Below, in pieces: positions 13,901-58,638 of a DNA stretch of 64,000 nt. This DNA comes from Candidatus Hodarchaeota archaeon (GTDB lineage Archaea; Asgardarchaeota; Lokiarchaeia; Sigyniarchaeales; SOKP01). The notes beneath the pieces were generated by a model. It saw only the letters and a program-made list of their open reading frames with translations. It was not told where the DNA came from and ran no database searches. The DNA is taken from the NCBI GenBank assembly GCA_048886685.1, contig JBHLKM010000008.1, positions 96,001 to 160,000 on the forward strand, in the 5' to 3' direction. The translations under genes and the position numbers were made by a program. The first letter of the stretch is position 1; each line of letters opens with the position of its first letter.

Positions 13901-16210
13901 ATGGTAAGTCAAGAAATAGATGATGAAGGAGTAAAAATTGTAAAAACTACTTCTGCCTTTGATTGCGGAGGTCGGTGTCTCTTAAGGTTTCATGTTAAGG
14001 ATGGAAAGGTTATAAGAGTAGAAGGTGATGATTTTCCTGATCCTGACCAACAGCTAAGAGCATGTTTAAGGTGTAGGTCAATCAGACAGTATATTTATCA
14101 TCCAGAAAGATTAAGATATCCCTTAAAAAGAGCTGGTCCAAAGGGTTCCGGCAAGTTTGAAAGGATTTCATGGGATGAAGCATTAGACACTATCGCAGAG
14201 AAATTAAAAGAAACTATAGAGAAATATGGAAATCAAAGCATCCTATATATTACTGGAGGAGGTTATTTAGGAGCTTTACATAGTGCCGGAGCGGCTTATG
14301 CAAGATTATTAAATGCACTTGGAGGATTTTCAAGCTCATACGGTAATATTTCTTCTCAAGGAGCTATTTTTGGAACTCAAGCGTCATACGGTTTTGGTCA
14401 GATTTTTGTTGGTAATAGTCGAGAAGACTGGTTGAATACCAAATTGATCATCTGTTGGGGCTGGGATCCCGCACGCCAGATTTCAGGGACAAATACGTTA
14501 TGGTGGCTAATTAAAGCTAAAGAAAATGGGGCTAAAGTTATTGTAATTGACCCACGTTATTCAGATACAGCTTTAGTGGTAGCAGATCAATGGATTCCTA
14601 TCATTCCTGGAACAGATACAGCTATGATGGCAGCCATGGCAAATGTTATGCTTCGAGAAAATTTATATGATCAGGAGTTTCTCGATAAATACACTCATGG
14701 TTTTGATAAATACAGAGATTATGTCTTGGGTGATGAAGATGGAATTCCAAAAACTCCCGAATGGGCTGAAAAAATTTGTGGCGTACCAGCTTCAACCATT
14801 GAGAATTTAGCTCGAGAATACGCCACAACTAAACCTGCAGCGTTAGAAGATTGCCAGGGCCCTGCTCGCTCAGCAATGGGTGGTCAATACACACGAGGAG
14901 CTATTACACTTTCTGCAATGACAGGAAATATCGGAAAACCTGGCGGAAGTGCTTGTGGTGGACTCCATGGGATTCCTTATGGTCATATGTTTAGGGGAAT
15001 TATAATTCCTCCAGGTGCTAATAAAGCATGGCCAAAAGGAAAATCCCTGAGAGGAAATATTAACCCAAGAGATCGTTTAGACACTCGAGTCCATGTAAAT
15101 AAGATCTTTGATGCCATTCTTAACGGTAAAGCAGGTGGATTTCCTATGGACGTTAAATTTGCTTGGTTCTGTGTATGTGATTTCTTAAACCAGATAGGAA
15201 ATGCGAATAAATCCGCAAAAGCTTTAAGTCGCGAAGATTTGTTTACTGTTGTTCCAGAATTATGGTTAACTCCTACTGCTCAATATGCTGATATCGTTCT
15301 TCCTGTAACTGGATTTCCGACAAGGAGTGAGCTTACAAGACCATGGCCCTCAGGACCTTATTTTGGTCATATGAATAAAGCTATTGAACCTATCGGTGAA
15401 TGTAAGGACGATATCGAAATAGCGGAATTATTAGCTGAGAGACTAGGTATTAAAAATTTTAAAAGAGAGGAACTTCTTGAACTATATTTAAAGAATCCCC
15501 AACTCGCTCCTGCGAAACCCCTTATAGATCAATATGTTGATATCAATGATAAATGGCTTCGCTTGCTCTCTCTCATGGCACAAGATGTTCGGGAAAATAT
15601 AAAAGATTATGATAAATATAAAAGAGAAGGAATCCATCGAGTCGAACTAAAAGAACCATATGTAGCATTTAAAAAGAATATAGATGATATTGAAAAAAAT
15701 CCATTCCCAACGCCTTCTGGGAAGATTGAGATATATTCCGATCAAATTGCAAGCTGGAATCGTCCTAATTGTCCACCTATTGCGAAATATGTACCAACAT
15801 GGGAAAATCGGGATGATCCCTTAGCAGAAAAATATCCACTTCAATTAATATCACCGCATCCAAGGCAACGGGTACATTCAGAACTCTATAAAATCGAATG
15901 GCTCATGGAAGCAATACCTCATCGTATGTGGATAAATCCTGCTGATGCAGAACCTAGAGGTATTAGAAATGGTGATATGTGTTTAGTCTTTAACGATAGA
16001 GGTACAGTAGCAATTGAAGCGTTTGTCACAAGAAGAATTATGACAGGTGTAGTTTGTATTTATGAAGGTGCCTGGTACAATCCTGATGAGAATGGAATAG
16101 ACAGGGGTGCTTGTGCAAATACCCTAACAAAGGATGAAATGGCTGAAGGTGGTGCGGCTGCGTTGAAAACATGTTTAGTTCAAGTAAAATTGGAGAAGGG
16201 AGGTGAATAA
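13901..16210 (+). CDS. Molybdopterin oxidoreductase catalytic subunit, DmsA-like, no Tat signal
   Basis: SAFDCGGRC...RACLRC, ERISWDEAL, IDPRYSDT, PGTD, ADIVLP, TPSGKIEI, PHPRQRVHS; no twin-arginine leader. Confidence 0.9.
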   Translation: MVSQEIDDEGVKIVKTTSAFDCGGRCLLRFHVKDGKVIRVEGDDFPDPDQQLRACLRCRSIRQYIYHPERLRYPLKRAGPKGSGKFERISWDEALDTIAEKLKETIEKYGNQSILYITGGGYLGALHSAGAAYARLLNALGGFSSSYGNISSQGAIFGTQASYGFGQIFVGNSREDWLNTKLIICWGWDPARQISGTNTLWWLIKAKENGAKVIVIDPRYSDTALVVADQWIPIIPGTDTAMMAAMANVMLRENLYDQEFLDKYTHGFDKYRDYVLGDEDGIPKTPEWAEKICGVPASTIENLAREYATTKPAALEDCQGPARSAMGGQYTRGAITLSAMTGNIGKPGGSACGGLHGIPYGHMFRGIIIPPGANKAWPKGKSLRGNINPRDRLDTRVHVNKIFDAILNGKAGGFPMDVKFAWFCVCDFLNQIGNANKSAKALSREDLFTVVPELWLTPTAQYADIVLPVTGFPTRSELTRPWPSGPYFGHMNKAIEPIGECKDDIEIAELLAERLGIKNFKREELLELYLKNPQLAPAKPLIDQYVDINDKWLRLLSLMAQDVRENIKDYDKYKREGIHRVELKEPYVAFKKNIDDIEKNPFPTPSGKIEIYSDQIASWNRPNCPPIAKYVPTWENRDDPLAEKYPLQLISPHPRQRVHSELYKIEWLMEAIPHRMWINPADAEPRGIRNGDMCLVFNDRGTVAIEAFVTRRIMTGVVCIYEGAWYNPDENGIDRGACANTLTKDEMAEGGAAALKTCLVQVKLEKGGE

Positions 16211-47816: not shown

Positions 47817-49166
47817 CTATAGCCGAATATAGCGTTCTCTTTCCCAATCACTCACAACAACTCTATAAGCATCAAATTCCTCTAATTTAGCATAGTAGTA
47901 ATTCTTAAATGCTGTTTCACCAAATATTTCTTTCATTGATTCAGATTCTTTAAACTCCAATAACGCTTCATGTAAACTACCGGGTAGAGATACAATACCT
48001 TCCTTTTCCATTTCTTTACTGGAAAGATGGTAAACATTTCTATCTGTTGGTTCAGATATTTCAATGTCATCTGATAATACACCTTCCAAACCTGTAGTTA
48101 AAAGCACGGCAAACTGAAGATATGGATTTCCAGACGGATCTGGGCATCGAATTTCACATCGAGCGGCATTAGGTCTACCGTGAAAATCAGGTACCCTAAT
48201 CAGAGGTGACCTGTTACGAAATCCCCAAGCAAGATATACAGGGGCCTCATAACCTGGGACGAGTCTTTTATATGAATTTGGCCAGCTACTTAGAACAGCA
48301 CACATGGCTCTTGAATGTTTTAATTGACCTGCTATCCATTTCTTCATTGTTAGTGATATATTATCTTGATCGTTTTCATCATAAAATGCATTATTACCAT
48401 TTTTCCATAATGACTGATGTACATGCATACCTGAACCATTAATTCCATGAAAGGGTTTTGCCATGAAAGTTCCAGTAAGATTGTGGTTTGCTGCAACCGT
48501 TTTGACTATTGTTTTAATAGTTATTGTATTGTCAGCGGTATTCACAGCCTCATCATAACGAAAATCAATCTCATGTTGACCATAAGCAACTTCATGATGA
48601 ATACACTCAACATTAATTCCCATTGCATCACTATATTCTGCAATTGTATATCTTATCATCTCATTTTTATCATATGGATCATAATCGAAATATCCTCTCA
48701 TATCTGATGGTTTAAATTCTGCTTTAGTATCTGGAGTTAGTATAAAAAATTCCATTTCAGGTGCACAAAAATATTTATAACCATGTTCTTTTGCCTTATT
48801 TGTAGCACGCTGTAAAATATAACGAGGATCCCCCTCATATCGTTCACCATCAGGTTTATAAATATCACAAATAACTCGAGCAACCTTGTTTTCTTTTCGC
48901 CATGGTAAGAGGTAAAAAGTGCTCGGATCAGGAAGTGCAACTTTATCAGATTCCTCAATAGCTCCATATCCTGTTATCGAACTTCCATCAAAATTTTCTC
49001 CTACTTCAAAAATATCTTCAATTCTCTTAGAATTAATCTCAAATGATTTAATAATTCCATGAATATCTGTAAATTGAAGATAGATAAATTTAATCCCTTC
49101 CTCCTTAATCCTCTCTATCACAGCATCACACATTTCTTTCCTTTTTGGATTATCTTTTTCAATCAT
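47817..49166 (-). CDS. glnA: Glutamine synthetase type I (GSI-alpha-like)
   Basis: FDGSSI, PEMEFF, HHEVAYGQHEI, FMAKP, NGSGMHVHQSL, NSYKRLVPGYEAP, EIRCPD. Confidence 0.97.
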   Translation of the reverse strand: MIEKDNPKRKEMCDAVIERIKEEGIKFIYLQFTDIHGIIKSFEINSKRIEDIFEVGENFDGSSITGYGAIEESDKVALPDPSTFYLLPWRKENKVARVICDIYKPDGERYEGDPRYILQRATNKAKEHGYKYFCAPEMEFFILTPDTKAEFKPSDMRGYFDYDPYDKNEMIRYTIAEYSDAMGINVECIHHEVAYGQHEIDFRYDEAVNTADNTITIKTIVKTVAANHNLTGTFMAKPFHGINGSGMHVHQSLWKNGNNAFYDENDQDNISLTMKKWIAGQLKHSRAMCAVLSSWPNSYKRLVPGYEAPVYLAWGFRNRSPLIRVPDFHGRPNAARCEIRCPDPSGNPYLQFAVLLTTGLEGVLSDDIEISEPTDRNVYHLSSKEMEKEGIVSLPGSLHEALLEFKESESMKEIFGETAFKNYYYAKLEEFDAYRVVVSDWERERYIRL

Positions 49167-49192: not shown

Positions 49193-49564
49193 TTATTCAT
49201 AAATTAGAGATGAATCTTTTTTACTCCTCATAAACGTGGAAAAATCTTTTATGGTTAATGCTTTTCGAATGTTTTCTGAATTCAAATTTAACTTATTATT
49301 AGGTTCACAATTCCAGTCGTAGGATGCTCTTTCGTGAATTGCAAAATTATTGGGTTCTGGAGTTAAATCTTTAATTAGTTCACAAGTTTTACTTGTTTTA
49401 AACGCAATTGTATCAATACCTAAAAAAATTGAACAATTCCATTTATTATTGTCTCGACCTCCAAAATCTGTTAATCCACTAGATATAGAATAATCTTCAC
49501 ACTCCTGACAGATTTTACTATCATAACGGTACTTTTTTCCACAAACAGGACATTTTATTTCCAT
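49193..49564 (-). CDS. Uncharacterised Zn-ribbon protein, first gene of the glnA unit
   Basis: CPVCGKKYRYDSKICQEC, KWNC, YDWNC; ends LIYE; 26 nt upstream of glnA. Confidence 0.75.
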   Translation of the reverse strand: MEIKCPVCGKKYRYDSKICQECEDYSISSGLTDFGGRDNNKWNCSIFLGIDTIAFKTSKTCELIKDLTPEPNNFAIHERASYDWNCEPNNKLNLNSENIRKALTIKDFSTFMRSKKDSSLIYE

Positions 49565-49661
49565 TTTTTCATATTCTCTCTCATTTAATTTTTGATTTAA
49601 TTAATTTTTCAAAAAGAAATATACGTATATTGCCAAATTAAATCAATTTTTATTTTTATAT

Positions 49662-49675
49662 GGGATTTAAACCCC
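49662..49675. promoter_or_regulatory. Candidate operator GGGA-N6-TCCC (variant GGGATTTAAACCCC)
   Basis: Lies between minus-strand TATA TTTATATA (49709-49716) and the Zn-ribbon/glnA unit. Confidence 0.6.
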
Positions 49676-49913
49676 ATTTTTTATCCTTTAACAATAAATG
49701 TGATCGTATATATAAAAATCTTTTGATCAATTATCTCAAATATTCATTTCTTGATAAAAATGTTAACAATATATTTAATAATCATTGAATAAAGTGACCG
49801 ATTGATTATTTAGAAATTTTTTGTCGTTATAGAGAATGATCATTTGAATATTTTTTATTGCTTTATTTAATCAAATGCATACTTTTATAATTATTTCATA
49901 ACTATCTATTAAT

Positions 49914-50417
49914 ATGGTTGTTAATTCTAAGATAGTTAACTTATCTGATTTGGATAAGAAGATCCTAACTAAACTAGACGAAGATGGAAGATTATCATTT
50001 CGTCATCTTGCTAAAGACTTAGAAGTAGGTTCACCTGTAACCATTAAAAATCATGTTGAGAATTTAGAAGAAAAGGGTGTTATTAAAAATTATGGAGTAC
50101 AGATTGATTATGAAAAACTAGGGTATGATATTATCGCTCTTATTGAATTAACGGTTTCAAAAGGTAAAATGCTTGAAGTTGAAAATAAATTAGCCCAGAA
50201 CCCAAACATTTTTGCTGTGTATGATATTACAGGAACATATGATGCTCTTATTCTTGCGAGATTTAAAACTAGGGCGGAGCTAAGCGAAATGATAAAAGAA
50301 GAAATACATACTTCTCCCTATGTTGAACGAACTAATACTCATATAGTTTTAAATATTATTAAAGAGGAATTTTCTTTTAAAAATTTGATAGAAAAAGAAG
50401 GAATAGAACTTCAATAG
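49914..50417 (+). CDS. Lrp/AsnC family transcriptional regulator
   Basis: LSDLDKKIL..LDEDGRLSFRHLAKDL HTH, LEEKGVI, VYDITGTYD. Confidence 0.95.
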   Translation: MVVNSKIVNLSDLDKKILTKLDEDGRLSFRHLAKDLEVGSPVTIKNHVENLEEKGVIKNYGVQIDYEKLGYDIIALIELTVSKGKMLEVENKLAQNPNIFAVYDITGTYDALILARFKTRAELSEMIKEEIHTSPYVERTNTHIVLNIIKEEFSFKNLIEKEGIELQ

Positions 50418-50439
50418 CAATCTAAAGCGAGGATACTGA

Positions 50440-50592
50440 AAACGTTCAACAAAAATCATTAATTATTAATACTAGGATTGAATCCAAAGATAAATGTTCA
50501 CTGAAATAAATCTTTATGTTTAAAATGTTCACAAAATCGAATATTCTGTAGACTATTTACTATTTTTAATATGAAAAAATATAAAATGTTCA
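50440..50592 (+). repeat. Four direct repeats AAAYGTTCA
   Basis: At 50440 (AAACGTTCA), 50492, 50523 and 50584 (AAATGTTCA); spacings 52, 31, 61 nt. Confidence 0.6.
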
Positions 50593-50777
50593 ATAACCTT
50601 ACACAAAACTTAAATAGAAGAAGATTTTCACTGAATAATTTTCATAAGAAACGTATAATATTAATAGATCTTTCATTTATATTTAACTATTCTTGTCGAA
50701 AGGTTTAGAAAAATTATGAAAAGACATAATTTCTTTCAATAAATTATAAATAGAAGTTCTCCTTTAGTAATAAATAA

Positions 50778-50791
50778 GGGAACTTGTTCCC
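50778..50791. promoter_or_regulatory. Candidate operator GGGAACTTGTTCCC
   Basis: GGGAAC-TT-GTTCCC palindrome 26 nt after TATA-like TTATAAAT (50744-50751). Confidence 0.65.
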
Positions 50792-50861
50792 ACAAATAAA
50801 AAAATAAGACATAAAAGAGGTAAAAAAAAATAAAAAAATTTTTTGAAAGGAGGTTTTAAAA

Positions 50862-51077
50862 ATAACAGTTCAAGAGTATTTTCGAACATGGGAAGAAATT
50901 TGCTTGGAAAAACTAAAAGAAATAGGAAGATGCTCAGCAGCCGAATGGGCTAGGGCAATGGGATATGGAGATAATCGTAATGGTGTGACAACAGTAATAA
51001 AACGAATAAAAAAAACTATGCCTGAAAGGTTAACGGTTTATTATAACACCAGGCCACGATTATATGAAGCTGTATAA
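50862..51077 (+). CDS. Small winged-helix-like protein, ATA start, absent from the ORF track
   Basis: SD AAAGGAGGT 7 nt upstream; (M)TVQEYFRTWEEICLEKLKEIGRCSAAEWARAMGYGDNRNGVTTVIKRIKKTMPERLTVYYNTRPRLYEAV*. Confidence 0.75.
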   Translation: MTVQEYFRTWEEICLEKLKEIGRCSAAEWARAMGYGDNRNGVTTVIKRIKKTMPERLTVYYNTRPRLYEAV

Positions 51078-51107
51078 ACAGAATATTAAAGTAGAGTGTG
51101 AATTAAG

Positions 51108-51620
51108 ATGCCATTAAAATGCCAAATTTGTGGAAAAGAATATTTATATGATGGAAAGATATGCCATAGCTGCGAAGAGAGTGCCATTACAAGTGGTTTG
51201 ACATCTCGAGAGGGATATGAACATAAGTGGAGATGTGATAATTTTATTGAACCGAATGGTTTAGTATTTGGAAGCAATTTAAATAAGAGAAGAGAGTTTA
51301 CATTAAAATTAATTGAATGTCCTGAATGTGGAGAAAAGTATTCCTATGGCAGAAAAATCTGTCATGTCTGTGAAGGTAATTTATTGCCGTTTGGAACGTT
51401 ATTCGATTCAGATCGCAAGGCACGTAGGTGGAATTGTGAAACAGTATTAGCTTGTATAGAGATATTGTCATCTAATTTAGATACTACTGAGACCATTGTA
51501 AAAGATGTACCCCATTTAGAAAAACTCGAGAAAACTGATTATAAATGGAATCAAGTTTCGACTATAAAATATAATAATGAACAAATAGATGGGAAGAACA
51601 AGCTTCTGATCTATGAATAA
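51108..51620 (+). CDS. Uncharacterised double Zn-ribbon protein, paralog of 49193..49564
   Basis: CQICGKEYLYDGKICHSC...KWRC and CPECGEKYSYGRKICHVC...RWNC; ends LIYE. Confidence 0.78.
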   Translation: MPLKCQICGKEYLYDGKICHSCEESAITSGLTSREGYEHKWRCDNFIEPNGLVFGSNLNKRREFTLKLIECPECGEKYSYGRKICHVCEGNLLPFGTLFDSDRKARRWNCETVLACIEILSSNLDTTETIVKDVPHLEKLEKTDYKWNQVSTIKYNNEQIDGKNKLLIYE

Positions 51621-51816: not shown

Positions 51817-53157
51817 ATTCAACAAGAGATAATGTTATTTCCAGGATGCGTGATAGTAAATAGATTTCCCTTTATTGAAGTCTCAATAAGGAAAGTATTT
51901 GATCATCTGGGAATATCTTTTACTGAAAATCCCAAATTTTCTTGTTGTCCAGATCCAAATGGCATTAAAAATTCTAATAAGTTATTATATTCTATTACCG
52001 CAGCTCGCAATATTGCTCTTGCTGAGTTAGAAAATAAAGCAATATTAACACCCTGTAACGGATGCTTTAGCACATTAAAAAAAGTCAAAAGTGAAATCGA
52101 TACAGATCACCATTTCAAAAGGAAAATCAATAGTTATTTAGATAAGATTGATATCAAGGTTGAGGGAAAGACTGAAGTATTCCATATGGTTGATTTCATT
52201 TTCAAATTTAAGAGAGACACTATCAGGGATAATTTAATATATCCACTGACGGGATTAAGAGTTGCTGTGCATTATGGATGTCATTTTCTTAGACCAAGCA
52301 ATAAAGTTCAGATAGATGATCCCTTGGAACCAGCAATCTTTGATGACTTAATTAAGGATTTAGGTGCTGAAAGTATAGATTATAATCTTAAAATGGATTG
52401 TTGTGGGGGAATTCTCGAGAGAGCTGGAAATTCAAGTTTATCATTAGAAATTATTAAAGCAAAATTAGAAAGCATGAAAGAAAAAGATGTGGATTGCATT
52501 GTTGTTTGCTGTCCTCAATGTTATATGCAATTTGATCATTTACAACAGGAAATGAAAAAATTTGACTTTAATTATGACATTCCTGTGCTATATTATTCAG
52601 AATTATTATCTCTCGCATTAGGGCTAGATCTCCGAGATATTATTAAAAAGCATCATAGAACCCAAGTTGATTCACTTTTTGAAAAGATCGATCTCATCCA
52701 AGAGAAAAATAAGGAGATAAGAAAATTCTTCGATCTTACCTTTTTACTTAAATGCTATTCATGTGGGGCATGCGATGACGATTGTATTATCTCAAAGATG
52801 ACCGAATTTAGTCCGAAGGCACTCATAGGCAATATTATCAAAGGAAAAATTGATCAGGTAATCTCAGATCCTTCTATTTGGATGTGTCTCGACTGTTATT
52901 TGTGTTATGAGCTTTGTCCGATGGGAATTGGCCTAATTGAAATTTTTACTATATTACGAAATTTAGCAAAAGAAAGAGGTTTTATCACTAAAGGATTTGA
53001 AAAGGAATTTAACGCTTTTTACAAAAAAGGAATAGTAGGAATGCCTTCGAAGGCAGCACGATCTAGAGTTGGATTACCATCACATATACCGGATGTTGGA
53101 GATTTGAAAGATTTGTTTAATGTAGTAGAAAGAGAGAATACAAAACTAGAGGAATAA
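51817..53157 (+). CDS. HdrB-HdrC fusion (two CCG domains plus 2x[4Fe-4S])
   Basis: FPGC, SCCP, PCNGC, HYGCH, DCCGG, CPQC, then CYSCGACDDDC and CLDCYLCYELCP; start is ATT 51817 (after GAGGT) or ATG 51832. Confidence 0.88.
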   Translation: MQQEIMLFPGCVIVNRFPFIEVSIRKVFDHLGISFTENPKFSCCPDPNGIKNSNKLLYSITAARNIALAELENKAILTPCNGCFSTLKKVKSEIDTDHHFKRKINSYLDKIDIKVEGKTEVFHMVDFIFKFKRDTIRDNLIYPLTGLRVAVHYGCHFLRPSNKVQIDDPLEPAIFDDLIKDLGAESIDYNLKMDCCGGILERAGNSSLSLEIIKAKLESMKEKDVDCIVVCCPQCYMQFDHLQQEMKKFDFNYDIPVLYYSELLSLALGLDLRDIIKKHHRTQVDSLFEKIDLIQEKNKEIRKFFDLTFLLKCYSCGACDDDCIISKMTEFSPKALIGNIIKGKIDQVISDPSIWMCLDCYLCYELCPMGIGLIEIFTILRNLAKERGFITKGFEKEFNAFYKKGIVGMPSKAARSRVGLPSHIPDVGDLKDLFNVVERENTKLEE

Positions 53158-53160
53158 TTT

Positions 53161-54351
53161 ATGAGATGGGAAAATTATACCTCATTACCAGAGCAGTATA
53201 GGAATCAGAGAGTATTCGATGGATGTGGGATTTCTGGATTTATAAATGTTGATGGGAGTAGGGTTAGAGGGGATAAAGTCATTGATATGCTATGTATTTT
53301 AAAGGAGAGGGAAAATGGATTAGGAGCTGGGTTTGCGGCTTATGGTATTTATCCAAAATATAAAAATTATTATGCATTTCATTTTCTCTTTGATAATATT
53401 TCTGCTAAAACAAAAGTTTTAGATTATTTAGATAATAAAGGTACAATTATCGCATCTGAACCAATTCCAACTAATACTCCTTTAAATGTTGATAATCCAC
53501 CGATTATTTGGAGAGCTTTCTTCGATCCTAATAAAAGTGGAAGTCTGGAACCAGACGAAAAAGTCGTACAGATTGTAATGGAAATAAATGCGAACATAGA
53601 AAATGCTTTTGTTATGTCTTCCGGTAAAAACATGGGTGTGTTTAAAGGAAATGGGTGGTCACATGAAATTGCCAATTTTTACAAAATTTCAGATTATGAC
53701 GCTTTTATGTGGTTAGCGCATTCTAGGTTTCCTACCAATACTCCTGGATGGTGGGGAGGTGCTCACCCCTTTAATTTATTAAATTGTTCAGTTGTTCATA
53801 ATGGAGAAATAACATCCTATGGAACAAATAGAAGGTACTTAGACTCGTTTGGATATAAATGCACTCTCTTCACCGACACAGAAGTCATTGCATATTTATT
53901 TGATTTATTATGTCGTAAGCATCAAATACCCTTATCTATCGCCACAATTGCTCTAGCACCACCATTATTTGGTGAGATCGAAAAGTTAAGCAGGAGAGAG
54001 CAACTAGTGCTTAAAAGTATAAGAGCAACTTATCGGAGCGCGATGTTAAATGGACCATTTTCAATTGTGGTTGGTTTTTCAAATCCAATTCCTACAATGA
54101 TCGGATTATCTGATAGAAAAAAATTAAGACCCCTTGTAATTGGAATTTCAGATGATGAAAACACTATATATATGAGTAGTGAGGAAGCATCTTTCAAACG
54201 ATTGACGTTATCTAATAGAAATTTCTCAATGAAAGAAATATGGCATCCCAAAAGTGGGTCAGCAACGATTGTCATGCTTGGTAAAGGATTGATAACAAAT
54301 GGCCTTGAAACACCAATAAAAAATTTAAAATTAACAATGATGGAGGCTTAA
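53161..54351 (+). CDS. Glutamate synthase amidotransferase (Ntn) subunit, GltB1/GlxB-like
   Basis: Propeptide then DG|CGISG, ERENGLGAG, HSRFPTNT, AHPF, VHNGEI, TDTEV. Confidence 0.92.
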   Translation: MRWENYTSLPEQYRNQRVFDGCGISGFINVDGSRVRGDKVIDMLCILKERENGLGAGFAAYGIYPKYKNYYAFHFLFDNISAKTKVLDYLDNKGTIIASEPIPTNTPLNVDNPPIIWRAFFDPNKSGSLEPDEKVVQIVMEINANIENAFVMSSGKNMGVFKGNGWSHEIANFYKISDYDAFMWLAHSRFPTNTPGWWGGAHPFNLLNCSVVHNGEITSYGTNRRYLDSFGYKCTLFTDTEVIAYLFDLLCRKHQIPLSIATIALAPPLFGEIEKLSRREQLVLKSIRATYRSAMLNGPFSIVVGFSNPIPTMIGLSDRKKLRPLVIGISDDENTIYMSSEEASFKRLTLSNRNFSMKEIWHPKSGSATIVMLGKGLITNGLETPIKNLKLTMMEA

Positions 54352-54354
54352 ATA

Positions 54355-55875
54355 ATGGCAATCGCGCATGAAATTATTAATTATTTTAAAGTTGATATAA
54401 ATAGAGAAGATTGTAAAAAATGTAAACGATGCATTAATCACTGTTCATTTGGAGTTTTGTCTTTTAATGGGGAACAAATAATTGCTGAGGATCATAAATG
54501 TGTTGCCTGTCAACGGTGTGCAGTTATGTGTCCTGGAAATGCGATAAGAATTGTTCAAAATGAGTCATTTTTGCCACCTCATGGACATTATACAAGAAAA
54601 ATTCGAAATATAATCTGGGCTCAATCTGGGAATGGAGGTGTTCTACTATCCGCAACTGGTAATGATAGACCAATCCGTTCAATATTCGATGATTTACTTC
54701 TAGATGCGTGCCAAGTTACTAATCCCTCTATCGATCCCTTAAGAGAAACAATTGAAACTAAGATAATTTTTGGGAGAAAACCAAAGAAATTAACTTTCAT
54801 CTCTCATCCGGATGATTTAGAAAAAATTTCTTTAAAAACCAACTTGATGCCGAATTTTGAGATTGATATGCCAATCATGGTAGGTCATATGTCTTTGGGT
54901 TCAATTAGTTATAATGCATGTCAGGCAATTTACCAAGCAGCAACTGAATTAAATATTGTAGCAGGATCAGGTGAAGGGGGTTTACATCCAGATTTCTATG
55001 AATATGCTCCGAATATAATTACAGAAGTTGCTTCTGGAAGATTTGGAGTGGATATTAATTATCTTAGCAATGCTGCGGCGTTAGAAATAAAGATCGGGCA
55101 AGGAGCTAAACCAGGGCATGGTGGTCACTTACCAGGTGAAAAAGTTAGCAGTTTAATCTCGCAAACCCGAATGATTCCAAAAGGAAGCGATGCGTTATCA
55201 CCTTATCCCCATCATGATATTTATTCAATAGAAGATTTAGCTCAATTGATAGCTGCCTTAAAAGAAGCAACAAGATATAAAGTTCCTGTAGGAGTAAAAA
55301 TAGCGGCAGTTCATAATTCTGCTCCGATTGCAGTTGGAATTGTTAGAGGAAGTGCTGATTTTCTTACTTTAGACGGATTCCGTGGTGGAACTGGTGCTGC
55401 TCCAAGAATTATTCGGGATCATGCAGGAATCCCCATTGAATTAGCCATAGCTGCCGTTGATGAAAGATTAAGACAAGAAAATTTACGTGAAGAAGTAACT
55501 TTAATAGCTGGCGGTTCAATTCGATATTCTGCTGATTTAATTAAGGCTATTGCTCTAGGCGCTGATGTAGCAATGTGTTGTATGCCAGTTTTAATTTCAA
55601 TGGGATGTAGAGTTTGTCAGCAATGCTTCAGGGGACTATGTCCCTGGGGAATTGCAACTCAACAAGAATATTTGGTAAAACGATTAGATGTTGATGTTGC
55701 GAAAAATAGAATAATTAATTTATTTCATTCTTGGAATGAAGAATTAAAGGAAGTTTTAGGAGCGATGGGAATTGATTCTATAGAATCGCTCCGCTCAAAC
55801 CGAGACCGATTAAGATATATAGGTCCAAATCCGCGTATTGCGGACATTTTAGGAGTAAAACATGCAGGTGAATAA
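54355..55875 (+). CDS. Glutamate synthase FMN subunit with N-terminal ferredoxin, GltB2/GlxD-like
   Basis: Two CxxCxxCxxxC motifs; MSLGS, GEGG, ASGRFG, EIKIGQGAKPGHGGHLPGEKV, PHHDIYSIEDL, CRVCQQCFRGLCPWGI. Confidence 0.95.
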   Translation: MAIAHEIINYFKVDINREDCKKCKRCINHCSFGVLSFNGEQIIAEDHKCVACQRCAVMCPGNAIRIVQNESFLPPHGHYTRKIRNIIWAQSGNGGVLLSATGNDRPIRSIFDDLLLDACQVTNPSIDPLRETIETKIIFGRKPKKLTFISHPDDLEKISLKTNLMPNFEIDMPIMVGHMSLGSISYNACQAIYQAATELNIVAGSGEGGLHPDFYEYAPNIITEVASGRFGVDINYLSNAAALEIKIGQGAKPGHGGHLPGEKVSSLISQTRMIPKGSDALSPYPHHDIYSIEDLAQLIAALKEATRYKVPVGVKIAAVHNSAPIAVGIVRGSADFLTLDGFRGGTGAAPRIIRDHAGIPIELAIAAVDERLRQENLREEVTLIAGGSIRYSADLIKAIALGADVAMCCMPVLISMGCRVCQQCFRGLCPWGIATQQEYLVKRLDVDVAKNRIINLFHSWNEELKEVLGAMGIDSIESLRSNRDRLRYIGPNPRIADILGVKHAGE

Positions 55876-56713
55876 AATTACTATAGTTAATGATATTGAA
55901 ACAAAAGATTTTGGAATTGGAATTGAAGAACCATTAGAGATAGATGCTGCTCCAAATGGAGATCCTCTCGATTATAGAGAATTAAATTCCATGATTCATA
56001 ATGCTGTTAATAATAATTGTAAGAAAATTGTGTTAAACAATGTTTGTGGGCAAAGATTTATAGGTGCTGCTTTACAAGGAGATGTAGAAATAAGTATTAA
56101 TGGGGTTCCTGGTAATGATTTAGGGATTTTTATGGATGGTCCAAGAATTAGTGTTTTTGGGAATTGTGAGGACCAATCTGGTAATACCATGAATCAAGGA
56201 ACAATGATAATTGATGGGGATGGAGGAGATGTTATAGGCTTATCTTCAAGAGGCGGGAAGATTTATATCAAAGGTGATGTTGGATATAGAGTTGGTATTC
56301 ACATGAAAGAATATGAAGACCATTTTCCAATATTAATAGTCGGTGGCACAGCTAAAGACTTTTTAGGTGAATATATGGCTGGTGGTAAAATTATTGTACT
56401 TGGTTTAAAAATTTCCTCAAATAGTAGTATTTCTGAGAGTCCACAGTCAATTTGTGGTACGGAATTAGGAACAGGGATTCATAGGGGTGCTATTTATCTT
56501 CGAACAGAAGAAAATGTAGAGGATAGGTTAGGTGTTGGAGCAAAAGTTTTCAATCTTTCAAAAGATGAACAAGAAGAAATTGATACTTACGTAGAAGATT
56601 TCTGTAAAACATTTAATGTTCCCCTAAGTGCTGTTGATAATAAACCTTTTAAAGTTATTAAACCAATTTCAAAAAGACCTTTTGGTGGAAATTATTGTAG
56701 CCAATTAATCTAA
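55862..56713 (+). CDS. Glutamate synthase beta-helix subunit, GltB3/GlxC-like
   Basis: GQRFIG, PGNDLG, GNTM, GYRVGIHMK, DFLGEYMAGG. Confidence 0.9.
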   Translation: MQVNKITIVNDIETKDFGIGIEEPLEIDAAPNGDPLDYRELNSMIHNAVNNNCKKIVLNNVCGQRFIGAALQGDVEISINGVPGNDLGIFMDGPRISVFGNCEDQSGNTMNQGTMIIDGDGGDVIGLSSRGGKIYIKGDVGYRVGIHMKEYEDHFPILIVGGTAKDFLGEYMAGGKIIVLGLKISSNSSISESPQSICGTELGTGIHRGAIYLRTEENVEDRLGVGAKVFNLSKDEQEEIDTYVEDFCKTFNVPLSAVDNKPFKVIKPISKRPFGGNYCSQLI

Positions 56714-56937: not shown

Positions 56938-56951
56938 GGGAATACAAACCC
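56938..56951. promoter_or_regulatory. Candidate operator GGGAATACAAACCC
   Basis: One mismatch to GGGA-N6-TCCC; 28 nt after TATA-like TTTATTAA (56902-56909). Confidence 0.55.
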
Positions 56952-56988
56952 ACTATTTTTTTGAATACATTTGAAAAGTAGATTATTT

Positions 56989-58638
56989 ATGACAAAATTT
57001 TCAATGGATACTCATCAATCAAGCATGATAGGGTCTAGAACCAGAGTTGAGGATTCTTGTGAATCTGGTTTGTGCCCAATTTGTGTAGCAGATTGCCCTG
57101 TTTTCTGCGAAGTTTCAAAATCTGCTTTGCGCGGTCGCGAAGTGTTATATCCACGTAGAGAATTTTTTGGTAATTCTACAGCTGGTTCACCAAAAGATTT
57201 TGGGTTCTCTTATAGTGACTTTCAAATTCAATTTGAATGTCGAGGAGCTCAGGGAATTGAAGAAGATGAAGATAAAGTAATATTTCCTAATGTTAATATT
57301 AAAACTAAGTGGGGAAATATTGAACAAAAAAATCCATTTGTAATTGCTGGTTTAGGAAGCACTTACGTTGCAAAACGTAACTGGGATGGTTTAGCAATAG
57401 GAGCTGCATTATCAGGAGTAAGTACTACTGTAGGAGAGAATGTAGTTGGAATGGATCCTTATGCTAAATTCGCAAACCATGCCGTATATCCTAAAGTAGT
57501 TGATACACAGGATATGAAATATCGGGTTGAAAAATACAGAGAATTTTGGGATGGGAAGCATGGAGATATTATTGTACAAAAAAATGTAGAGGATACAAGA
57601 TTAGGTGTTTTTGATTATGTTATGTCTAATTTAGAAGTAAACTCACTTGAAATAAAATTTGGTCAAGGTGCAAAAGCAATTGGAGGCGAAGTCAGGTTAG
57701 AATCATTGGAGCGTGCCCAATTACTGCAGGAAAGAGGGTACCTTGTCTTTCCTGATCCTTCAGATCCAGTTATTATTGAACAGTGGAAAGAAGGATTAAT
57801 TCCAGACTTTGAAAGACATAGTCGGGTAGGACTATCTTCTACTGAGGATGTTTTAGAAGAAATTGATCAAGTACGCTCAAGCGGCGCAAAAAATATTTTC
57901 ATAAAAACTGGAGCATACAGACCAGCAGCAACAGCTTGGATAATAAGATTAGGTATTGAAGGAAAAGTAGATGGAATGACTTTTGATGGTGCTGGTGGAG
58001 GTACTGGTATGAGTCCAGTAAGTATGATGAATGAAGGATCAATTCCAACAGCCTATTTAGAAGCACTAGTAGTTGGATGTCTTGATATGATTAAAAAGAA
58101 AAATCCGAATGTATCTATACCCTCTATTGCAATAGCAGGTGGTATTGCTAATGAAACACAGATTTTTAAAGCACTTGCTATGGGTGCTCCTTATGTAAAT
58201 TGCATTGCGATGGCAAGAGCCCCAATTACCGCAGCTATGAAAGCAAAATTCATTGGAGAGGTTATTAATAAAAAGGAAGCCACACCTGCAATGCTTCGCA
58301 ATTTGGGTTTCTATAAGGACAAAGATCCTAAAAGTTTGACATTAAGTGAAGCTTTTGTTGAGTATGATAATTTGAATAGAATTTATAACGGAAATCGTAT
58401 TCCTCCTTCGGCGATTGGAGTTTACACTTATTTTACTAGCAAATTAGGTATAGGACTCCAACAACTATTAGCTGGAGTTCGAAAATTTAAGGCGAATTTA
58501 ATATGTCGAAATGATATTGCTTATATTTCTCAAAGAGCTAAAGAAGTATGTAAAAAATGGAATCTTGGAATTAAATCTCAAGAATCACTCGATTATGAGT
58601 TAGTAAAAAATGAGATTTATTCTGGGAATTATGATTAA
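56989..58638 (+). CDS. Glutamate synthase-related FMN-binding protein (second family)
   Basis: CESGLCPICVADCPVFCE, EIKFGQGAKAIGGE, DGAGGGTGMSP, IAGG; ATG at 56989. Confidence 0.85.
   Translation: MTKFSMDTHQSSMIGSRTRVEDSCESGLCPICVADCPVFCEVSKSALRGREVLYPRREFFGNSTAGSPKDFGFSYSDFQIQFECRGAQGIEEDEDKVIFPNVNIKTKWGNIEQKNPFVIAGLGSTYVAKRNWDGLAIGAALSGVSTTVGENVVGMDPYAKFANHAVYPKVVDTQDMKYRVEKYREFWDGKHGDIIVQKNVEDTRLGVFDYVMSNLEVNSLEIKFGQGAKAIGGEVRLESLERAQLLQERGYLVFPDPSDPVIIEQWKEGLIPDFERHSRVGLSSTEDVLEEIDQVRSSGAKNIFIKTGAYRPAATAWIIRLGIEGKVDGMTFDGAGGGTGMSPVSMMNEGSIPTAYLEALVVGCLDMIKKKNPNVSIPSIAIAGGIANETQIFKALAMGAPYVNCIAMARAPITAAMKAKFIGEVINKKEATPAMLRNLGFYKDKDPKSLTLSEAFVEYDNLNRIYNGNRIPPSAIGVYTYFTSKLGIGLQQLLAGVRKFKANLICRNDIAYISQRAKEVCKKWNLGIKSQESLDYELVKNEIYSGNYD

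Follow-up and report, generated by a model that had tools for sequence, protein, structure and literature searches.

What do two paralogous zinc-ribbon proteins do in front of the genes for glutamine synthetase (GS) and glutamate synthase (GOGAT) of an Asgard archaeon? The question is raised by a stretch of 64,000 nt from a Candidatus Hodarchaeota archaeon (assembly GCA_048886685.1, contig JBHLKM010000008.1, positions 96,001 to 160,000; this whole stretch is the window below), in which a preliminary description, made from the letters alone, had picked out two such proteins, here A and B, as members of an unnamed accessory family for nitrogen assimilation that would bind its target through a shared C-terminal LIYE tail. 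We found that A and B belong to an undescribed, lineage-specific family, whose members are very likely accessory regulators of glutamate and glutamine assimilation. From sequence and gene context we favour, with a probability of about 0.4, a reading in which A and B would be regulatory adaptors, with a ribbon head that couples to winged helix-turn-helix (wHTH) or Lrp regulators and a tail, in effect a tethered glutamate, that docks on glutamate-binding enzymes.

The ribbon family and its C-terminal tail

The two reading frames and their shared motifs are as first outlined, with one ribbon unit in A and two in B. In A, one CPxCGKKYxYDSKICxxC ribbon is followed by ISSGLT, KWNC, YDWNC and the terminal LIYE; in B, the order is ribbon 1, ITSGLT and KWRC, then ribbon 2 and RWNC, and finally YKWN and a terminal LIYE. 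BLASTP aligned A with unit 1 of B at 2e-15 and with unit 2 at 2e-12, so that their likeness is not a matter of chance. Both ribbons of B are indeed present, but the two units, which had been put down to one and the same motif, are not equivalent: unit 1 scored 55–79 bits on a hidden Markov model (HMM) of the A-type head and unit 2 scored 67–81 bits on that of the B-type head, so that B of the window corresponds to an A-type head joined to a whole B-type protein. Most B-type proteins have a single unit (~100–113 aa) and align to the second unit of B, and unit 2 is the ancestral B-type ribbon and unit 1 is A-like. An AlphaFold2 (AF2) model of A was confident for residues 1–30 alone (predicted local distance difference test score, pLDDT, ~80), the remainder scoring <50, and the ESM Atlas model agreed (overall pLDDT 0.37). 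As modelled, a folded C4 zinc ribbon forms the N-terminus of the family members; the body behind it, which contains the WNC and YxWN motifs, is poorly predicted and probably a disordered segment that bears short linear motifs.

An exhaustive HMMER search of 1.84 billion representative proteins with a combined profile of the ribbon family matched 101 clusters at E <= 1e-3. Word-based searches gave 16 relatives of A and 29 of B with the motifs conserved, all of them unnamed proteins of Promethearchaeota or 'Thorarchaeota' metagenome-assembled genomes (MAGs) and metagenomes, and the named source records of the family are uncultured Promethearchaeota MAGs throughout. Among 300 genomes sampled across the phylum, matches were confined to one Asgard family, in which 41 of 67 genomes had them (genera g1, g4 and, marginally, g7), and there was none in ~230 genomes of 29 other families. 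The hosts are without exception uncultured MAGs, and because their genera are related to each other, counts across these genera are not independent.

The elements conserved in the alignment are the C4 ribbon (CPxCGxxYxYxxKICxxCE), a WNC ~18 residues on, a second Y-x-W-N-(C) and the C-terminal tail. The family ends in [YF]E in 135 of 186 distinct sequences, and just five unfused members of at least 95 aa lack the tail. Among the 135 tails, 108 have Leu at position −3. Position −2 holds Ile (60), Leu (19), Lys (18), Val (17), Phe (7), Met (4) or Arg (4), and position −1 holds either Tyr (100) or Phe (35). The information content is 3.1 bits for Leu(−3), 1.8 bits at position −2 and 3.5 bits for [YF](−1), and the terminal Glu is found in 135/135 by selection, the tails having been chosen for ending in [YF]E. 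Tail conservation, first claimed from A and B, thus holds in this profile-based check, and by alignment L-x-[YF]-E is the most conserved feature of the family besides the ribbon. We infer, as had been proposed, that a target is bound through it; if this is true, LxYE would be a short C-terminal docking motif of a type not described before.

Because the window tails read I-Y-E, the preliminary description had also considered the proteasome-gating HbYX motif, defined as hydrophobic-Tyr-any residue (PMC6008533). The tail would then dock in the pockets of the 20S alpha ring and deliver GS or GOGAT for turnover, or serve disordered regulators as a self-delivery degron. HbYX activators (PAN, Cdc48, PbaB, PI31) share with most family members a terminal hydrophobic-aromatic-X after a polar linker: a polar, flexible segment precedes the tail, position −2 is hydrophobic in 109 of the 135 tails, and the PAN and Cdc48 tails of the window genome itself (LYS, IFL, FYK, LFV, LYR) use Tyr and Phe natively, with Phe in PAN2 and one Cdc48. 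Conservation is, however, out of phase with HbYX, since it falls on Leu(−3), [YF](−1) and Glu(0), with Leu(−3) and Glu(0) the most constrained, whereas position −2 varies most among the last four residues, with Lys or Arg in 22/135 (16%); moreover, X is free in HbYX and always Glu in these tails. Each protein has one tail and no sign of ring formation, and the neighbourhoods scanned are regulatory or metabolic in character and contained no gene for a protease or AAA protein. The motif is thus not supported in the form suggested, and a proteasome link seems to us very unlikely.

Pfam DZR_2 (PF18912) matched B at 27.7 bits, marginally over its gathering threshold of 27, and A at 17 bits, below it; the match spans only the CxxC..CxxC knuckles, whereas the family has WNC, YxWN and LxYE motifs and a gene context of its own. 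NCBIfam gave no match for A and just an unrelated sub-threshold one for B, a sequence profile search of the PDB gave nothing below E = 0.003 (L32 zinc knuckles ranked first), and the ESM Atlas gave no usable feature match, its structure matches all having template modelling (TM) scores < 0.5. A literature search found no description of the ribbon family. Beyond a marginal generic zinc-ribbon match, A and B thus fall in no Pfam or NCBIfam family and have no relative in the PDB, which agrees with the view that the family was unnamed. Neither a tail absent from the homologues, nor a missing link to nitrogen genes, nor an already characterised family was found.

Gene neighbourhoods and a candidate operator

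A lies directly before glnA and B directly before hdrBC-GOGAT on divergent strands, as the preliminary description had it, and glutamate or glutamine genes are neighbours of the family in many genomes, which bears out the link to nitrogen assimilation (coordinates in Table 1). A stops 26 nt ahead of the glnA start on the same strand, and the two genes are probably co-transcribed, because this spacer is too short for a separate promoter; B ends 211 nt 5′ of the CCG+Fer4 (HdrBC-like) gene. At 14 loci in g1 and g4, an A-type gene (89–138 aa) lies directly 5′ of glnA in the same orientation, 26–96 nt away, and a 105-aa ribbon subtype (tails FIFE, PYFE) is divergent from glnA. The divergent lrp–glnA pair is present in sampled loci of most genera of the host family, including genera without the ribbon family, so that the A-type gene is an insertion between lrp and glnA. 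In haloarchaea, lrp typically adjoins glnA and Lrp activates this gene (PMC8229911, PMC2894021), and an archaeal Lrp responsive to glutamine is known (PMC3584215).

The GS itself is essentially a single-copy orthologue, 73–89% identical to that of the window in 12 of 13 genera and ~62% in g3. The window genome has this GS type alone, in two copies, the second of which (88% identical) lies in a mini-cluster at the edge of a contig; being the one type present and passing the GlnA equivalog cut-off, this GS must make free glutamine. R376 and E389 occur in 14/14 GS with an A-type gene upstream, most of which also have S383, all in one 14-residue surface loop (DRNVYHL..KEMEKEG, residues 376–389), presumably the counterpart of the Tyr397 (adenylylation) loop in the E. 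coli enzyme; in most GS that have no A-type gene upstream, this loop is different. These loop residues, together with the disordered bodies and the geometry of co-transcription with glnA and with FMN2, a GltS-FMN-like gene (spacers 1–96 nt), would suit proteins that are purely enzyme-bound subunits or modulators (activator, inhibitor or assembly factor) of GS and GOGAT/FMN2, with no link to transcription, like IF7/IF17 or sP26. However, GS is conserved with or without A, so that GS can do without A; phylogeny confounds the loop differences, three GS with no A-type gene upstream sharing the residues, and both the Lrp fusion and the s57 pairing described below would go unexplained. We hold such a purely enzymatic role to be distinctly unlikely.

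At B-type loci, a homologue of the small winged-helix gene s57 lies immediately 5′ of the B-type gene on the same strand in 14/14 cases. An alignment of 15 s57 homologues (70–92 aa) revealed a conserved RTxE..C segment (..RTWEEIC.. in the window), encoded from position 50862, and the stretch between the in-frame stop and TTG 50904 contains no ATG, GTG or TTG, so that a non-canonical start is likely. AF2 predicted three helices and a beta hairpin for s57 (mean pLDDT 80.6), and the top Foldseek matches of this model were all winged-helix DNA binders (Zalpha, MarR, ArsR, AspA) with probability ~1 and E-values of just ~1e-2. The genus distribution of s57 is that of the ribbon family (13/14 g1 and 16/16 g4 genomes, rare elsewhere), and s57 may occur without B. 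After the B-type gene comes HdrBC-GOGAT, GOGAT or directly FMN2 (spacing 1–30 nt in L044, L045, L052, L054, L066, L072), the last being the gene directly 3′ of B-type genes in the sister genus.

A palindrome, GGG-N8-CCC and mostly GGGA-N6-TCCC, occurs nine times in the window against 1.2 expected (positions 14457, 28572, 32499, 49662, 50778, 55631, 56938, 62431 and 62695). Each of the 18 s57 genes examined in related genomes has the palindrome upstream, between −34 and −126. The copy before A recurs in the close relatives L037 and L038 and in none of 14 other A-type loci, and the copy before FMN2 is also found before the L038 orthologue. The sequence is a candidate operator of a nitrogen regulon. 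An Rfam scan of 47–59 kb gave nothing relevant.

Other subtypes separate tail from head. Tail-bearing genes head operons of glutamate-handling enzymes, namely glnA, GOGAT, the GltS-FMN-like gene and an FGase-like (N-formylglutamate amidohydrolase-like) gene; the last adjoins the SLY[IVL]YE subtype (L059, L067, L068), together with genes for a CCG/Fer4 protein and an amino-acid permease and two unknown genes (225 and 305–309 aa). Tail-less relatives come in two forms, one of 197 aa, in which a ribbon+WNC unit is fused to a full Lrp regulator, and a short one of 73–84 aa, whose copy in the window genome lies at contig C2:296350-296604 (L004:1522-1776:+). Tail-less forms (L035:1105-1698:-, L036:8-601:-, L060-L063 and that on C2) always lie beside genes for glutamate dehydrogenase (GDH), a REC-Lrp fusion, a histidine kinase and a response regulator. 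With tailed forms beside enzymes and tail-less ones fused to Lrp or beside two-component genes, the tail goes with glutamate-handling enzyme genes and the ribbon head with wHTH or Lrp regulators. In Pfam, A and B have neither an HTH_AsnC nor a RAM (AsnC_trans_reg) domain, and the 197-aa fused relatives alone carry both; the exhaustive HMMER search gave no fusion of the ribbon to GS or GOGAT, only the Lrp fusion and unrelated multi-ribbon proteins.

The obligate winged-helix partner of B, the Zn-ribbon–Lrp fusion and the shared operator go beyond the preliminary description and point to transcriptional circuitry. They could even mean that the ribbon proteins are purely co-factors of transcription, which act only with Lrp or s57 at promoters (as co-repressor, anti-repressor or DNA-contacting protein) and whose tail docks on a transcription factor or the basal machinery: the ribbon is fused to a full Lrp regulator, B invariably adjoins s57, the operator 5′ of s57 is conserved, the short forms adjoin two-component genes, and the C-terminus of s57, ..LYEA[LV], resembles the tail. 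Yet it is specifically the tailed forms that lie beside enzyme genes and the tail-less ones that do not, the ribbon proteins are not basic, and the constant terminal Glu would be left unexplained, so that we regard a role restricted to promoters as unlikely.

Table 1. Features of the two divergent nitrogen loci and their surroundings, by position in the window.
Feature	Position	Strand	Remarks
glnA, type I glutamine synthetase	47817..49166	-	Pfam Gln-synt_C + Gln-synt_N; TIGR00653 506 bits vs cut-off 429
A-type Zn-ribbon/tail protein	49193..49564	-	123 aa; ribbon residues 5-22, KWNC 41-44, EP 70-71, YDWNC 82-86, LIYE 120-123
GGG-N8-CCC palindrome	49662..49675		lrp / A-glnA divergent intergenic region, 111 nt upstream of A
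Lrp/AsnC regulator gene (lrp)	49914..50417	+	divergent from A-glnA; Pfam AsnC_trans_reg + HTH_24
Palindrome GGGAACTTGTTCCC, candidate operator	50778..50791		upstream of s57-B
s57, small winged-helix gene	50862..51077	+	upstream partner of B; conserved coding sequence precedes first canonical start (TTG 50904)
B-type protein	51108..51620	+	170 aa; A-like ribbon head (1 to ~57) fused to complete B-type protein (~68-170), ends LIYE
HdrBC-like CCG/Fer4 gene and three-part glutamate synthase (GATase_2, Fer4+Glu_synthase, GXGXG)	51832..56713	+	Pfam; same order in L037, L038, L070
Palindrome GGGAATACAAACCC	56938..56951		33 nt upstream of FMN2; also before L038 orthologue
FMN2, second Glu_synthase-domain protein, GltS-FMN-like	56971..58638	+	555 aa; Pfam Glu_synthase 4e-15

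How head and tail may work together

The reality of the family, the conservation of its motifs, synteny, the Lrp fusion and the conservation of the operator are observed, and the wHTH fold of s57 comes from a model. In the adaptor reading, the ribbon head would be the module that couples to a DNA-binding partner, Lrp for A-type and s57 for B-type proteins, because of the ribbon–Lrp fusion and the obligate adjacency of s57, and s57 would probably bind the GGGA-N6-TCCC palindrome. The C-terminal tail would be a docking peptide for the neighbouring enzyme. Its constant last residue, a Glu that in chemical terms is an N-acyl-glutamate, would either fill the glutamate site of GS, of the GOGAT synthase subunit or of FMN2 or compete for it; the idea of a tethered N-acyl-glutamate arises because every subtype with a tail lies beside an enzyme that binds glutamate or N-acyl-glutamate, which is not so for the subtypes that lack a tail. 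Through this contact, the ligand state of the enzyme could be relayed to transcription, enzyme activity or both, following a trigger-enzyme logic as with the TnrA/GlnR tails on Bacillus GS. We infer every protein–protein contact in this scheme, and the direction of regulation.

The constant terminal Glu could also be modified covalently, as in the carrier LysW or the tag Pup, its carboxylate being activated, for example by the adjacent GS-fold enzyme, and then amidated or ligated, to give a protein-tethered Glu/Gln cycle. LysW and other amino-group carriers combine a small zinc-ribbon head with a flexible C-terminal extension that ends in a Glu essential for function, an outline that A and B recall; GS chemistry activates the gamma-carboxylate of Glu, PafA, which has the GS fold, ligates Pup via the C-terminal Glu of Pup, and the FGase-like gene beside one subtype belongs to an N-acyl-glutamate hydrolase family. 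However, TIGR01206 (lysW) has no match in the window genome, while control genomes do match, and no LysW family was among the Pfam matches of A and B; the LxYE tail is neither EDWGE nor GG[QE], the ribbon proteins are not acidic, no ATP-grasp gene was among the neighbours scanned, and the adjacent GS is that single type, passing the GlnA equivalog cut-off, which must make free glutamine. Covalent chemistry on the tail thus strikes us as extremely unlikely.

As candidates for family membership, two systems were tried and rejected. LysW and the amino-group carriers were set aside for want of a TIGR01206 match, of an acidic EDWGE-type tail and of a LysX/ArgX ATP-grasp gene among the scanned neighbours, and a Pup-like tag was set aside as no GG precedes the terminal Glu and the adjacent GS-fold gene passes the GlnA equivalog cut-off.

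Several points weigh against the adaptor reading. The Lrp of the ribbon fusion is a paralogue that is just ~30–34% identical to the glnA-linked Lrp, so that the step from head to Lrp is indirect. A and B are dispensable, in that some genomes of the same genus have lrp–glnA or s57–GOGAT without them, and the A-type gene is absent from some g1 genomes. The loop signal in GS, with R376/E389 also in three GS that have no A upstream, tracks the GS clade and amounts to about one phylogenetic event; similarly, the anticorrelation with PII/Amt given below reflects about one evolutionary event and is a lead, not a test. A/B-family proteins are near neutral in net charge (isoelectric point, pI, ~5–9), which offers no independent sign of DNA or enzyme binding. 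The glutamate-mimic idea draws solely on the constant terminal Glu and gene context, and a regulator that inhibits its target while being co-transcribed with it would be unusual.

Known systems resemble A and B in part. In Bacillus, the C-terminal peptide of the regulators TnrA and GlnR docks on feedback-inhibited GS, so that the state of the enzyme controls transcription of nitrogen genes, and the logic proposed here is the same. TnrA/GlnR are, however, MerR-type DNA binders without sequence relationship to A or B in Pfam, whereas in the ribbon family the DNA-binding module (Lrp, s57) is separate, or fused in one branch only. Cyanobacterial IF7 and IF17 (gifA, gifB) are likewise a paralogous short and long pair of small, largely disordered GS-control proteins, but they lack both the zinc ribbon and the LxYE tail, their genes are transcribed separately from glnA, and they have no GOGAT-linked paralogue; Pfam and NCBIfam scans of A and B gave no gifA/gifB-type family, no dedicated homology search for gifA/gifB having been made. 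Among archaeal small proteins that modulate GS, sP26 and GlnK (PII) of Methanosarcina mazei act on GlnA1, but sP26 has 23 aa and no ribbon, and PII is trimeric with a ferredoxin-like fold, both being unlike the ribbon family. No known GS-control system among those compared unites ribbon, disordered body, LxYE tail and paralogues at both GS and GOGAT.

Host genomes mostly without PII and Amt, and two related loci

PII (PF00543) and Amt (PF00909) were found in 2/14 g1 and 0/16 g4 genomes, and the window genome (100% complete) has no PII or Amt gene. Most genomes of these two host genera thus have genes for GS and GOGAT while lacking the PII/Amt signalling pair that is otherwise near-universal, whereas several sister genera have PII/Amt in 3/4 to 5/7 of their genomes, with amt–glnK beside lrp–glnA. 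The adaptor system may stand in for the PII/GlnK that most host genomes lack, and the ribbon/tail proteins, the mini winged-helix protein, Lrp and the palindromic operator at the heads of the GS and GOGAT operons make a testable candidate for the missing circuit. A more specific version, in which the family in Loki-type genera without PII/GlnK and Amt would be a non-homologous replacement of PII, transducing nitrogen status by a tail Glu that probes the glutamate sites of GS, GOGAT and related enzymes and a head that signals to s57 and Lrp, is in our view a doubtful extension and improbable as a whole.

Two further loci bring several of these genes together. One nitrogen island (L038, G206:C21:4500-24000) contains two amt–glnK pairs, a divergent GS-like gene (35% identical, 500 aa) and two lrp genes, and further holds an A-type gene, s57, a 66-aa B-type gene, HdrBC-GOGAT and FMN2. 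In the window genome, the mini-cluster at a contig edge (C46:1-4400, L002) comprises a B-type fragment, s57, lrp and glnA, and is either a paralogous locus or derived from a contaminating related strain (estimated contamination 8.4%).

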